The translations under genes and the position numbers were made by a program. A DNA stretch of 64,000 nucleotides, taken from positions 30,010,001 through 30,074,000 of the forward strand of contig NC_086097.1 in assembly GCF_963921235.1 (NCBI RefSeq), written 5' to 3'. The notes beneath the pieces were generated by a model, which worked only from the letters and a program-made list of their open reading frames with translations, made no database searches and had not been told where the DNA came from. Positions 1 through 6,082 of this stretch are shown piece after piece; positions within the stretch are counted from its first letter, which is position 1; every line of letters starts with the position of its first letter. Source of the DNA: Mobula hypostoma (taxonomy: Eukaryota).

Positions 1-297
1 ACACCCTGATAGGGTGTCCGTAATGAATAGACGACGACCCCGGTAACTTGAACCCACGCTGTTCACAGACCTCTGATATCCCGATGCGCTGGCACTGTCG
101 AGGCTGCAATGAGGTCGGTCCTCGGCGTTCGTGCCGAAGAGTCCACGGTTAAAAACACAAGACCGGCGTGGTCTGGTTCGGAGCCGCATTCTTGAGTAAG
201 ATGGACGCTCTGCCGTCAGGGCTTACTGAGGCCTGGCTGACCTGCTGTCTTTCAAGGGCCATGAGAGCGAGGGCTACGCGAACTTGATTAGGCATTT
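1..297 (-). mobile_element. Gypsy LTR retrotransposon, decayed: gag C-terminus (degenerate zinc knuckle) and region leading into the protease; continues beyond the window start
   Basis: Minus-strand translation across frameshifts gives MPNQVRVALA...TTPVLCF/RGLFGTNAEDRPHCSLDSASASGYQRSVNSVGSSYRGRRLFITDTLSG. This resembles the Gypsy gag knuckle (LCFYHxxFGxxAxxCxxPC) and the LFITD..SG segment preceding the protease. It joins 6525 once the LINE at 298-6509 is removed. Confidence 0.8.
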
Positions 298-1120
298 CTT
301 CTTCTTCTTGTGTTGTTTTATGGCGGTTGGCAAACCAGCTTTAAGGTGCATTACCGCCACCTGCTAGACTGGAGTGTGGATCGTTGGATAAACAGGAGAA
401 GGGAAAAGAATTGCATTCCCTATATTCCGTATAATAAACCCGAGTCTTTCAGATACTTCATGATACGGATCTGTATTTCTCTTGAATTCCCACTTAAAAT
501 ATCTTCTATACCCACAGCAGTTTTTTTGTTTATCTTAAGCGCTCCTATCATCTTCACTCTTTCTCGTTGGTACTTCTTACATTTTATCAATACCTGTTCA
601 ACTGTTTCTGGTTGATTACACTGTTCACACAACCCAGTTGGATGTTTCCTTATTTTATGTAATGTGTAATTAAGACTTGTGTGTCCAATTCTTAAACGAT
701 TGATGATCACTTCTGTCTTTCTATATCCACTTGACAATCTTTTGTATCTGACTTGCCTCTGTATTTTGTACAGTTGCCTCCCTGTTTCACTCTCATCCCA
801 GTGCTTCTGCCATGTCTCCTCAATACTGCACGTGTTTTTATAATGCTTTTGACTTCTCCTTTGCTTGGAGGGATCTGGACCTCTATTATAGACAATTTGA
901 GTGATTGTCTGGCTATATTATCCACCTTTTCATTATCCTCCACTCCACAATGAGCAGGAACCCAAAGAAAGCTTACTTCTACCCCATTTTTGGTCAGTGT
1001 ATATAACTTGCATAAAATCTCCAATAAAATATCCTGTCTACTTTCTGATTTTCTTGATTTTATCGAGGTTAATGCAGATAAACTGTCTGAACAGATTGCA
1101 GCCTTTTTGATATTATTTTC

Positions 1121-1964
1121 AAAGTTGTAACAGAAGCAGTTGAGCAGAGAGTACTGCAGCACAACTTCTCTCGTGCCCCATGCTGCACAGAACATGGCAT
1201 ATAATTTGTGAAAGAAGGCTCCAAGTCAAGGGTGTACAGCACAGGCTCACGATCAAGCATACTTTCTTCAGTCAATGACTGGTGTGTCAAGACCGACCTG
1301 GACGGGAAAGGCAGTTTCCCGGAGCAATTAGCTTTCACCACATTGCGTCCAGATATAATCGTATGGTCTGACACCAGTAAAGAAGTGGTTATTGATGAAC
1401 TCACAGTCCCCTGGGAAGACAACATCGATGAAGCCCATGAGCACAAGTTAACCAAGTATGCAGAATTAAAATCAGAGTGCAGAGACAGAGGGTGGAAGGT
1501 CTCATGCTATCCATTCGAAGTAGGCTGCCGTGGGTTTATTGCGTTCACTCTCCAGAAGTGGCTGCGTGACCTTGGCTTCACTAGAAGAGAGATCAAGTCA
1601 ACCAGCAGGGCTGTAGCTAAGGCAGCAGAAAAAGGATCAGCATGGGTGTGGACCAAGTATGTCCAGAGGGGCAGATAGTCAGACAGTATATACATATCTT
1701 GCAAACCCTTCAGTAGTTGCATAGACACCTGAAGAGCAGACTATCTGTTGGATGGAAGTGACCAACAACTCTGATAGAGGCAGATGCCAAGTTTTTAAGC
1801 TCACCAGTGGGAGGTGGTGCTTTAGCACTGCTAGCCCACCACCTCGAGGGAGTCTTGATCATAAGTGGGCCAAAACTCCTGAAGACCGGTGGCAGATCAA
1901 CTGATGATCCCACTGGTGATAGCACAGGACAGTTAACATCTTAGTCCAAGTGTATTTTTAACTA
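1121..1964 (+). mobile_element. 5'-truncated RLE-endonuclease non-LTR retrotransposon (HERO/R2-like): endonuclease region and 3' UTR, inserted in the Nimb RNase H region
   Basis: ORF 1208-1678 has LRPDIIVW...VVIDELTVPWE...KLTKY...FEVGCRGF (PD-(D/E)xK restriction-like endonuclease). The Nimb frame (..WIEE|NNIKKAAICSDS) resumes on both sides. No clear TSD. Confidence 0.85.
1849..1914 (+). ncRNA. Hammerhead-like motif with non-circularly permuted strands (G12 position is A in this copy)
   Basis: GGAGUC|UUGAUC (1849-1860), AGUGGG-C-CAAAACUCC (1864-1879), GAUCAA-CUGAUGA-U-CCCACU (1895-1914). All three stems can form. Confidence 0.5.
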
Positions 1965-4900
1965 TTCTTCTATCCAAGATAATGCACACAAAATTGCCAT
2001 TCATTCTGTTGTATACACTGATAAATGGTTTGATGTTCTTTTCCTGATACTAGTTTTGCACTGAGGAATGTAGTTTGCAATACCTGTGTGGCCAGAGCTA
2101 GGGTCTTTTGATCCATCCGTAGATATTACAAGTTCATTTCTAAAATGCGAGTCTATATATTCTTGTACTATCTGTTTGATTCCATAGTTAGACTTCTTTT
2201 TTAAAAGTTGTTGCAGGTTTTTATCCACTGTATGCATTGTAAAGAGCCATGGAGGAACATCAGATATTGGAACTGTAGGGCTATATTCCATTTTCGTGTA
2301 GACCTTATTTTTGTGCTGCTGCATAACCGATCCATCCAAAGTTATTATAACTTGACTTATTATGTTCCCAGCAGTCTAATATAGCTTTAGCTGGATGTGA
2401 GTAGTTATGCCCCATGATGTTAACCCAATAATGTAGCATTGGCTTTATTCTTCTAAGTCTTAATGGTATTTCCCCCATTTCAACTTGACGAGCTGATATA
2501 GGTGATGTTCTGAATGCACCACTACATATCCTGAGGGCCTGGGCTTGCTCATCATCCAGCATTTTTAAATTACTGTCTGCAGCTGACATGTAAGCTACAC
2601 TTCCATCATCCAATGTAGCCCTCATTAGAGCTTGATAAATATTTAATAGCGATATCCTGCTCGCACCCCAGTCCTGCGCAGCAAGGCCCCTCAATAAGTT
2701 GTTTTTTTTACATTTGTTTGTAATTTTCTCAATTTGCTTTTTCCATGTAAGTTTCTCATCAAATAACAAACCAAGGAACCGAATTACCTTTACCTGCTCT
2801 AATTTTTGTTCATATAATTTCATGGAAATTGGTTTGTGACTTCTTGAGAAACATATCACTTGCAACTTATAGACAATTTGAAACCCCATTTATTTGCCCA
2901 CTCCTCCACTTTATTTATTGCATCTTGCATTTTTCTTTGTATATAAATTAAATTTCTTCCCCTCACCCATAAAGCCCCATTATCTGCATATAAGGATTTC
3001 CCCACACTATGTTTAACTTGCGCAAATATGTCATTTATCACTATGGAAAATAGTAATGGACTGCAGTCACTACCTTGTGGTGTTCTGTTTTCAACCAAAT
3101 ATGTCCTGGAGTACTCTGTTTCCACCTTGACTTGAATTGTTCGACCAAAAAGAAAGTCTAGAACCCAATTATATAATTTTCCTTCCACCCCTAGTTCTTT
3201 CAATTTGATTAACACTCCCTCTTTCCAGAGCATGTCATATGCCTTTTCTATGTCAAAAAATACCGCCAGGACCCAACAAACTTTATTTGTTTGAGCCTTC
3301 CTAATTTCAGATTCCAAGCTAAGTATTGAATCTACTGTAGTTCTTCCTTTACGAAAACCACTTTGGTAGGGAGAAATAAGATTTCTTTTTTCTAGAAAGT
3401 ATGTAAGTCTATCAGTTATTATTCGTTCCATAAGTTTACCTAGTTGTGAAGTTAGTGCAATTGGTCTATAATTTGTTGGGTCTGATGAATCTTTACCAGG
3501 TTTTAATACTGGAACAATAACAGAATGTTTCTATGCAGTTGGTAGTTTACCTATTTCCCATATTTTATTAAACAGTCTCTGTAGAACTAGAAGTACACTT
3601 TTTGATAAATGCTTCAGCATTATACCCCATACTTGATCCTTCCCAGGAGAAGATGGCCAGTCATTCATAATGGCTCTTTCTCTTTCTGTTACACTAATAG
3701 GTGTATCCAGCACTTCTTCAGATGTTGTTCTTTTGTCTGTAATTCCTGAATTTTGCTTAAGCCTCTCCTCCCTTTGCTGTCTAGCCTTGACCATCAAATT
3801 CTCCGAGCTATGTATGTTTACAAAAGTTTTTGCCAATATTGCTGCTTTTTCTACATTGTTAATTGCCATTTTGTTCTTACTTTTTAGCACAGGAATCTCT
3901 TTACTACTTATACCATTCACTTTCCTTATCATGCCCCCTATTTCGGATAGCTGAGTTTCTCTTCCAATTTTGTTACAATACTGTCTCCAAAATGCTCGCT
4001 TTACTTGTCCGATTGTTTTCCAAACTTCTGATTGTTTTCTTTTGTATTACATTAGTGTTTCTACCAAATGTTGTCTTTTTAACATTTTAAATGCTTTATT
4101 TCTTGCTTTTATACTTCTACTACATTCACAATTCCACCATGGAACATTTTCCTGTTTCCTGTACCTTTACTTTTCAAAATTGTTTCTTCTGCTGGATTTA
4201 TAATTGCTGTGACCAATTTATAATTCATTTCTTCTGTATCTGATATATTTTCATCTAAAATCTTAGTGCATCTTACTTCACTTCTTGTTTGAAATGTCTC
4301 CCACTCTGCCTTATTTATTTTCCACCTTGACACTTTCGATCCTACATTTTGTTCCATTTTAACCTGAATCCTTGTGAGTAAGGGATAGTGATCACTTCCT
4401 ACTGTAGTTTGTTTCAATATGTTCCAAGTACTGATCCCTGCTAATTCTCTACTTACAAATGTTAAGTCTATTGCAGTTATATTTGTAAGTAGAAAATATA
4501 TTATATTCCGGGATATATCTCATACCTTCTCCATTATTTATACATACCAGTTTTTCATCATCTAGAAATTCTTCTATCACTAATCCATTTTCATCCACAT
4601 TTTTACATCCCCATAGTGTACTGTGTCCATTGAAATCCCCACACTATATTATTTTCCCTTGCATCCTACCACCCACTTCGTTTAATGTATCTTTGCTTCG
4701 TCTTCTACATGGATTATAATAATTTATTATTACCAAGCTTTCTCTGCCTATCCATATTTTGACTATTATTGATTCATACTTCTGCCCTATGTTGACTATA
4801 TTATATCTCATCCCACTGGCTATAAATATTACTACTACTCCACCATTGCTATTGCTTCTATCCCTCCTAATAGCTGTACATCCTTGTAAAACAAAATCTA

Positions 4901-5902
4901 ATTGTGGTTTCAACCATGTTCCTTGTATACACAAGAGGTTTTTCCTTAAGTTCTGATACATATTTCTTAAATTCTTGACCATTTGCGATAAGACTCCTTG
5001 CATTCCATTGCAGTATATATATTGCTATTAAGATCCCGCCTCCCCTGCCTGTGATCTGTTTGATCCTCCATTCAGTGTTTTTTCAACTGCTTCCCACCTA
5101 AGCCCTGTAATACCAAGATATTTTTCTGCAGACTTGACTATAATTTTAATTTTTTTCTGTTCTTTTGTCTGTTTGCGCTGAACAGTTAATTGAATCTACC
5201 ATAAACAGTACGAAATCTTTTCTATTCATTATTAGTGTATCCTTATTTATCTTATTACAGCCCTCACAGTTCAGCGGTTTATTATTCCCTGTATTTGTTT
5301 GCTTAGTAGCTTCCTCCTTTTCAGCAAAACCTTTCACTGCCTCAGCGTAACTAATCCCTTGAGTTACTTTAACATATTGTATCTCAGCTGGCTTCTTGCT
5401 AATAATGCACCCTCGTTAAGCTGCGCTGTGTTCCTCGCCGCAATTGCAGCATTTCAGCCTAGCTCCCGCCTCACACTTCCCGTATTCATGTTCTCCAGCG
5501 CATCTCCCACATCTTTTTCCCCCTCTGCAGACCACCGCAATGTGCCCAAATTTCTGACATTTAAAACATCTTAAAGGCGGTGGTATATATATTCTGACCT
5601 CATAACACATATACCCTAAATAAACTTTAGTCGGCAATCTCTCTTCATCAAAGTTAATCATCACTGATAAACTATCACACTTGTTTTCCATCTCTTGTAA
5701 CTTCCGAACGTTTGGCCTCAATAATCTTTTCTCCTTTTACGTTCTGTTTAATTTCACCCATTGTAACTTTTGTTGGTATCCCCGAAATAACTCGTCCACT
5801 TTCTATTGTCGAGTATTGAGCACTGTACTTTTTTTGCCATCTATTTTATTTAATCTTATCACTTTGCTTTGCTGAGCACTATCCCGACATATCGCTAATA
5901 GC

Positions 5903-6082
5903 AATACACATAAAAATTGCTAGTGAACGCAGCAGGCCAGGCAGCATCTCTAGGAAGAGGTACAGTCGACGTTTCAGGCCGAGACCCTTCGTCAGGACTA
6001 ACTGAAAGAAGAGATGGTAAGAGATTTGAAAGTGCGAGGGGGAGGGGGAGATCCGTCATCTGCAGATTTCCTCGTGTTTGCG
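5903..6082 (-). mobile_element. Short Penelope pLTR insertion with inverted tail segment
   Basis: 14-bp TSD atatcgctaatagc (5889-5902) / atatcactaatagc (6083-6096). 5903-6054 is homologous to the pLTR at 15170-15320 in reverse. 6057-6081 is the tail in forward orientation. Confidence 0.9.
5963..6000 (-). ncRNA. Minimal type I hammerhead ribozyme (Penelope pLTR), intact core
   Basis: Minus strand reads UAGUC-CUGACGA-A-GGGUcucgGCCU-GAAAC-GUC|GACUG. Confidence 0.8.

Follow-up and report, generated by a model that had tools for sequence, protein, structure and literature searches.

A LINE family with a copy in the window, by which we mean the whole 64,000-nucleotide stretch of Mobula hypostoma DNA analysed here, very probably carries in its 3' UTR, as drawn in Table 1, a conserved RNA fold of six helices around a full set of hammerhead core letters. 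The strands follow each other in the order of outer helix Pa (5' strand), hairpin H, stem II strand and interaction strand, block S, block G, interaction strand with stem I strand and CUGAnGA, and finally the 3' strand of Pa. The simplest description is that of a type-SGC ribozyme reopened at the A9-G10.1 step, inside block C, where a four-way junction of Pa, H, stem II and the G-A core takes the place of the A9-G10.1 bond. We consider this split-core fold a real and probably undescribed topology of a known ribozyme class.

Table 1. Features of the LINE copy and of its 3' UTR fold (positions of the window).
Feature	Position	Strand	Remarks
5'-truncated RLE-type (HERO/Zebulon-like) LINE copy	1116..1963	+	from copy comparison
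End of the element ORF, restriction-like endonuclease domain	1205..1678	+	RPDIIVWS..DELTVPWE..E..K
3' UTR of the LINE copy, holding the motif	1679-1963	+	
Outer helix Pa, 5' strand	1801..1812	+	pairs with 1908-1919; pairing probability 1.0
Hairpin H, 8 bp	1813..1832	+	runs from Pa straight into stem II; fourth arm of the four-way junction
True stem II, 5' strand	1833..1837	+	pairs with 1867-1871; 1833 corresponds to G10.1 (G in the family, A in the window)
Stem I-II interaction helix, 5' strand	1839..1844	+	pairs with 1887-1892
Block S	1848..1860	+	1848-1853 belongs to stem III and 1855-1860 to stem I; cut predicted after C1854 (GUC)
Block G	1867..1880	+	stem II 3' strand 1867-1871; G12-A13-A14 1872-1874; stem III 3' strand 1875-1880
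Interaction helix, 3' strand	1887..1892	+	1887: family A, window C
Stem I 3' strand, then CUGAUGA	1895..1907	+	stem I 1895-1900; CUGAUGA 1901-1907
Outer helix Pa, 3' strand	1908..1919	+	begins directly after A9
Terminal segment, start of reverse transcription	1920..1963	+	without poly(A); in tandem copies the fixed junction into the next unit follows

The four-way junction is placed at A9-G10.1 because Pa starts right after A9 and no base is left over between H and its neighbours Pa and stem II; in the core-anchored parse, Pa abuts CUGAnGA with no offset in 13/18 motifs, and H has no unpaired base at either end in 11/18. The strand upstream of S is laid out like the block-C tail of HRIMA-1 in the supplementary alignment of PMC10085705, with a stem II strand, one base and an interaction strand, and this match makes reopening of an SGC ribozyme within block C the simplest description. 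Type-SGC hammerheads (HRIMA-1 and a variant) come from Eckert, Friedrich, Weinberg and Weinberg 2023 (PMC10085705), so that the natural non-circular permutation which the initial annotation had brought up is indeed published as the S-G-C order, and the non-circular order proposed for the core of the LINE motif is supported. That paper treats the CUGAnGA block as uninterruptible and allows at most 1-2 inserted nt at this place in any hammerhead known to it; the break between A9 and G10.1 goes against this rule, and the split block falls outside the six orders assumed possible in the same text. The LINE motif resembles type-SGC in the S-G-CUGAnGA order, in the core letters and in a fourth helix which joins the far sides of stems I and II, with a stem I-stem II linker of 1-8 nt where type-SGC typically has 3. 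However, in type-SGC the stem II strand comes immediately after CUGAnGA or is set off from it by one U, whereas in the LINE motif the stem II and interaction strands stand upstream of S, and two extra helices (Pa and H) close a four-way junction. The type-SGC accessions are, according to the supplement note, all but one from IMG/M (the HRIMA-1 rows consulted all carry Ga accessions), unlike the LINE motif, which sits in genomic LINEs.

The helices were evaluated on a sequence-only MAFFT alignment of 13 diverged motifs, with the five length-variant motifs of the 18 excluded. A covariation check suggested in the initial annotation came out in favour of stem I (94.6% of cells paired, compensatory changes at 6/6 pairs) and stem III (97.3-98.4%, 4/6 pairs), and against stem II as it had been drawn there. 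The true stem II, 1833-1837/1867-1871, is paired in 92.3% of cells with 3/5 pairs compensatory, and its first pair, before G12, is G-C (G10.1-C11.1) in 17/18 motifs; the interaction helix 1839-1844/1887-1892 reaches 94.7% with 6/6 pairs compensatory, and is short or undetected in 3/18 core-anchored parses. In the core-anchored parse of all 18 motifs, the paired cells amount to 71/72 for stem I, 90/90 for stem III, 90/90 for the upstream stem II and 139/144 for Pa; partners were here chosen by pairing, so the cross-controls of 0.63, 0.70, 0.76 and 0.46 are the proper comparison. Pa shows 10/10 pairs changed on both sides in the register of the relative L227, which is that of most rows and in which Pa and H are 70-83% paired (H 81%), this register having been selected after the alignment was seen; in the window register, where MAFFT shifts our own row and that of L287, the values are 37-52%. 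RNAalifold, unaided, returned H (with covariation), the interaction helix and stem III.

Taken as a whole, the fold has 37/42 pairs changed on both sides, it was equalled in 0/500 shuffles, and slid controls reached 32-43% against 86%. The full descriptor passes in 18/18 relatives, in 0/3600 upstream shuffles and in 0/53 viral stretches with both core words (54 stretches from a pattern scan of IMG/VR, 53 of them testable and none fitting). Kinship may let sequences outdo a shuffle control without any structure, and the 18 motifs include near relatives (about 14 families by our count). Nested folding of the family copy also gives a decoy helix, 1813-1817/1839-1843, a probability of 0.5.

The conservation pattern follows the catalytic core. 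Exactly ten columns are invariant among the 18 motifs, and these are C-GAA and CUGA.GA: the letters C, U, G, A, G and A of CUGAnGA are the same in 18/18 while position 7 is free (U 11, C 3, G 3, A 1), and GAA of G12-A13-A14 never varies. At the A15.1-U16.1 position, U-A occurs in 17 motifs and U-G in 1. The cut site, placed by pairing alone and unique in all 18 motifs, has a NUH triplet in 18/18 (GUC 5, GUU 5, GUA 4, AUA 3, AUC 1; never NUG), with U16.1 in 18/18 and N17 never G, which supports the GUC at 1854/1855 named in the initial annotation as the predicted site. The relatives L214 and L218 have a G after CUGAUGA and an extra C before GAAA, and these two letters would allow G10.1-C11.1 to persist if the junction moved by one pair. 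Invariant letters, NUH, a free N7 and G10.1-C11.1 are the known catalytic constraints of hammerheads (see also PMC10085705). We take this pattern as strong comparative evidence for a ribozyme, short of proof of cleavage, and we think it likely that an intact family copy would self-cleave, with the cut predicted after C1854.

The motif lies, as the initial annotation stated, in the 3' UTR of an RLE-type LINE. The full unit of the family is approx. 3865 bp with a single reading frame by copy alignment, and the longer copies show one ORF per unit with an N-terminal zinc finger, RT, a CCHC knuckle and a C-terminal RLE; the RT-RLE frame spans about 1190 aa, interrupted by a stop in the copy examined. 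We take RPDIIVWS..DELTVPWE..E..K in 1205-1678 to be the restriction-like endonuclease motif; a Pfam search of this ORF end gave no match, RVT_1 was found on homologues of the element protein, and a PDB sequence search with the 556-aa C-terminal part as the query gave 0 matches. The family is abundant, with 1291 first-look candidates in the genome, of which 40 were scored at 97-100%, and two protein searches of this genome returned the same LINE family and no diverged in-genome relatives. It does not insert into rDNA. Copies are without poly(A), and their ends range from TAAC to TAACTCTTT, extending variably into the junction letters, which is consistent with internal priming. A named homologue is the Tetraodon polyprotein Q7T1J8 (P0081), 44% identical, which we presume to be Zebulon/HEROTn and which clusters with the motif-bearing locus L237 in a quick IQ-TREE protein tree built without Repbase reference sequences. 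The window copy was inserted into an unrelated decayed LINE with RT and RNase H on the minus strand (707-1115 and 1964-5750), upstream of which lie gag-like and endonuclease-like frames.

The letters of the initial annotation are all where it put them, namely GGAGUC/UUGAUC at 1849-1860, AGUGGGCCAAAACUCC at 1864-1879 and GAUCAA-CUGAUGA-UCCCACU at 1895-1914, as are those of its 12-bp helix 1801-1812/1908-1919. Its proposal that A1872 arose by CpG decay from GAAAC also held: G1872 is present in 25/29 copies, picked by an ORF-end query which does not overlap the motif and is therefore unbiased for it, and the family consensus, whose lack of CGAAAC it had named as a refutation, carries GAAAC. The same set has G1833 in 29/29, A1887 in 29/29 and C1866 in 20/29 copies. 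Of a larger set of 133 copies, some of them window-biased, 82 keep the 13-letter core intact together with NUH. The window copy itself is probably dead, as had been suspected, because it has lost G12 (A1872), G10.1 (A1833) and one base of the interaction helix (C1887). The assay proposed at the time, with G restored at 1872, would mislead if only this letter were restored because 1833 and 1887 deviate too, and since strand 1801-1812 is predicted to be required for the ribozyme, a comparison with and without it would therefore mislead as well.

An alignment of 30 endonuclease-domain proteins was taken to metagenome contigs, and the best 80 of 127 confirmed loci were used as relatives; 55 of these 80 have at least 170 nt of downstream sequence, and in many of the 80, CGAAA and CUGAnGA occur at constant spacing just after the ORF. 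A covariance model from 13 motifs (12 relative loci and one copy of our own family, matching by construction) found 34 of the best 80 of the 127 loci at E<=1, all on the element strand, and missed L214, L265 and L266, where the motif is visible by eye. A quick IQ-TREE protein tree of 78 rows places all 34 motif-labelled rows on one 56-row side (SH-aLRT 99), and none of the other 22 rows has the motif. On the motif side, L255, L278, L279 and L284 are without it, and L283 was labelled negative and later matched the covariance model. This side also holds protein records of Tetraodon, hake, lamprey, brittle star and amphioxus, and the host range of the motif may extend to these animals, as judged from the protein tree. 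Motif-bearing relatives span 33-66% protein identity. In one family (L232:512-629 and L293:1684-1800) the final codons of the ORF seem to run into the 5' half of the motif. Rfam gave five weak matches, none a hammerhead, in window positions 1-6000, 0 gathering-level matches in 15 relative loci and no ribozyme in 11 motif-less loci.

The genomic copies are partly head-to-tail. Upstream of the 5' region, every copy that reaches it (40/40) crosses a fixed junction and carries on for 9 to about 1690 nt in the tail of the unit before it; the three shortest matches, of 9-13 nt, are weak. In these partial tandems, which the initial annotation had missed, the ORF is thus flanked by the motif on either side, the junction is constant and the 5' end varies, and 17/40 extend upstream past 1801 and contain two complete motif regions. 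The same tail-to-head junction is present in the relatives L220, L222, L225, L227 and L237. Insertion of a new copy before an old full-length one was ruled out, as 40/40 copies have the upstream tail and their repeats share private variants. Among 19 insertions, non-CpG variants are shared at 71/10713 sites within an insertion (0.66%) and at 304/192834 between insertions (0.16%), a fourfold difference, and private deletions are common to both repeats in L173 (17 nt across the cut site) and L182 (4 nt). Target-site duplications show no excess (2/27 vs 16/702), and single-event insertion of the partial tandems is therefore concluded from the shared variants instead. Two results weigh against the chain proposed in the next paragraph: recurrent variants are shared between repeats 34 times and unshared 62 times, and repeat divergence within insertions (5.3%) is only slightly below that between them (6.8%).

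Sequence runs were uninformative on the RNA: a run search with a query from the ORF end found no matching run recorded as RNA, and one contig from four presumed-RNA runs bridges the cut site, but such a contig cannot tell RNA from DNA. We infer both cleavage and circular RNA from the copy comparisons, and the chain we propose is as follows. A split-core hammerhead would cut head-to-tail transcripts after C1854 into unit-length RNA. Four-way junctions can adopt a stacked-X geometry, in which stem II would stack on the G12-A9 core and Pa on H, so that catalysis would be kept. Cleavage at both motif copies would give a monomer from 1855 to 1854 with both ends still joined by the fold, and these ends would stay paired or be rejoined. 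RT would then start internally at about 1963, cross the site (either ligated or by an end-to-end jump) and run for more than one turn, which would regenerate the variable terminal redundancy. For the whole chain, from cleavage to a closed or circular template, we see the chances as evenly balanced. More tentatively, an entire clade of autonomous R2-like LINEs might replicate via circular RNA from a seventh hammerhead topology, the core being an arm of a four-way junction, with RT copying the circle by target-primed rolling-circle reverse transcription.

The 5' ends of the 40 copies bear on this chain and on the alternative that survives best, according to which the same ribozyme cleaves and the template stays linear: the upstream copy would make the RNA 5' end and help cap-independent translation, the downstream copy would be protected by protein, and long redundancies would be uncleaved read-through of tandem donors. 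Of the 40 copies, 19 end before the site, in the interval from the junction to 1856, and 21 extend across it; ends occur at 0.59 per 100 nt in that interval and at 0.23 further upstream (2.6x, binomial p=0.003; the first-pass end rate, estimated from ends of ordinary copies, is about 0.09 per 100 nt). This enrichment agrees with a linear template, as do the four ends at about 1869-1872, at G12 (L111, L126, L183, L299), which possibly represent a reverse-transcription stop in the folded core. The lack of an in-frame AUG before the zinc finger in 17/20 copies (20 of 30 loci with a zinc-finger match) fits an uncapped RNA and speaks for the proposed chain and for this alternative alike, and R2 with its HDV-like ribozyme offers a precedent (available text of PMC6765202). 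Additionally, a 9-bp subfamily deletion is concordant in 3 insertions and discordant in L164, L177, L180 and L070, always in the 3' repeat only; this one polarity is as expected from a donor with unlike repeats, and the discordance counts against a single circular template because such a template does not predict it, so the linear alternative accounts for it better. Against a linear template, however, 1855 shows no pile-up of ends (none falls on the junction, and none lies 8 nt or less from 1855), and 10 of the 19 short redundancies instead stop no more than 35 nt from the junction; 21/40 templates were continuous across the site, and the redundancy could only shrink without regeneration, yet it occurs in distant families. 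We therefore hold the linear template to be somewhat unlikely, and keep the closed or circular template as our working model.

We find it less likely again that the structure is a non-cleaving docking site for the RT-endonuclease, descended from a hammerhead or merely resembling one. The fold sits at 45-160 nt from the 3' end, in the region bound by R2-type proteins, a cut there would part the priming end from the ORF, and the genome bears no trace of a cut: there is no 5' end within 8 nt of 1855 in the 40 copies with a 5' region, none of the ends of 30 ordinary copies falls in 1855-1890, and deletions in 133 copies do not cluster at the cut site. L173 (G000:C55:41117700-41123500, minus strand), whose two repeats both lack 17 nt around the predicted cut as their centre (window 1847-1863) and with them the whole S block, may have moved without that block; as a single case, the deletion could also be the scar of an imprecise rejoining or jump. 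What stands against docking is that a stem II strand is available, supplied from upstream with compensatory changes, and that the catalytic rules (NUH in 18/18, free N7, G10.1-C11.1, stem I-II contact) are kept exactly over the 33-66% span of protein identity. It is an unlikely reason for the conservation because a binding site has no evident need of catalytic rules.

It is very improbable that the motif is a plain type-SGC hammerhead with stem II at 1864-1869/1909-1914, as the initial annotation had drawn it, switched off by the 12-bp helix: the block order agrees with type-SGC and six pairs are possible in the window copy, but only 51.3% of cells are paired in the 13 relatives of the MAFFT alignment, no better than in slid or cross controls, with 54/108 core-anchored cells vs 46% for mismatched strand pairs, the pair next to the core forms in 3/18 motifs, and the stem is broken in the family because C1866 (20/29) yields a C-A mismatch. 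In the family copy the stem as drawn has -2.2 vs -20.1 kcal/mol for Pa, and its pairing probability is 0.0 vs 1.0 for the 12-bp helix (nested folds only). The canonical SGC register fares similarly in the core-anchored parse (43/90 cells, first pair 3/18), and the stem II 5' strand does not stand directly 3' of CUGAnGA as it would in an uninterrupted block C. Nor does the 12-bp helix behave as the competitor or switch that had been suggested, since in relatives the strand after CUGAnGA pairs in Pa and the strand before GAAA pairs upstream; that helix is Pa, and it conflicts only with 1864-1869/1909-1914, not with the hammerhead.

With the split-core hammerhead as the preferred reading, several known systems can be compared. 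The endonuclease of Penelope is of the GIY-YIG type. Penelope-like elements are, similarly to our LINE family, autonomous retroelements in partial tandem with a hammerhead in the repeated end (pseudo-LTRs), and differ in belonging to another RT clade with another endonuclease than RLE, and in minimal canonical hammerheads as opposed to a large pseudoknotted fold (available text of PMC6765202). Retrozymes (Cervera 2016, available text of PMC4918200) likewise have terminal repeats each with a hammerhead, and are processed to linear and circular RNA, the same model being proposed for the LINE family, where it is inferred; they are, however, non-coding and use LTR machinery, whereas the LINE family is autonomous and non-LTR with a frame of about 1190 aa. 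R2 shares RT with a restriction-like endonuclease, a ribozyme and a non-AUG translation start, and its ribozyme is HDV-like, sits at the 5' end and frees the RNA from rRNA (available parts of PMC6765202 and PMC13580325), unlike the hammerhead-like motif of the LINE family, which belongs to the 3' UTR and comes to stand on the 5' side only by virtue of the tandem structure. The HERO clade, with Zebulon, shares the partial tandem structure, and Q7T1J8 groups with the motif-bearing L237. Zebulon of Tetraodon (HERO clade) was reportedly described in partial tandem arrays by Bouneau in 2003, and hammerhead variants with an extra stem, said to have been described by Weinberg in 2015, may bear on novelty. 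Within the literature covered, that is outside subscription papers and bioRxiv supplements, no hammerhead was reported in the HERO/Zebulon clade, and no split CUGAnGA block.

Should the motif cleave, a hammerhead block could be interrupted after all, contrary to the rule stated for all three. Its escape from Rfam models and standard descriptors would then be accounted for, and a large ribozyme family would be known from across one LINE clade. The partial tandem structure of RLE elements without a fixed 5' end would gain a testable mechanism, and a ribozyme whose RNA ends leave through the core, with the products held by five helices, would lend itself naturally as a scaffold to RNA circularisation. 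Screens of systems for gene insertion have included HERO-type elements (available text of PMC13580325), and their 3' UTR may cut the template, which bears on template design for this use.

Several further observations were made on the element and its surroundings. A relative from the motif-less side of the tree has a terminal repeat (L234:1-94 and 3899-3992) in which Rfam found no ribozyme, and a tandem or circular structure may exist on that side with another signal. The start of the unit, just after the junction, has repeated hairpins of the CCAG-GAA(n)AG-CUGG type in 7 families (L061:5291-5420; L217, L220, L222, L225, L227, L237), a candidate protein-binding or translation-initiation structure. 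Five copies (L109, L116, L121, L132, L137) have internal deletions which all break at unit positions 707-765 and rejoin variously in the 3' part; splicing was ruled out as their origin, since GT-AG ends are lacking, and a template-switch hot spot or SIDE-like derivatives are possible. Finally, in an LTR family of approx. 870 bp with TG...CA ends (570 candidates; L168:1-490, L339-L358), about 80 nt near one end, without the catalytic core, resemble window 1878-1956, and letters like this stretch appear as loose ends in two presumed-RNA runs, with very high depth there.
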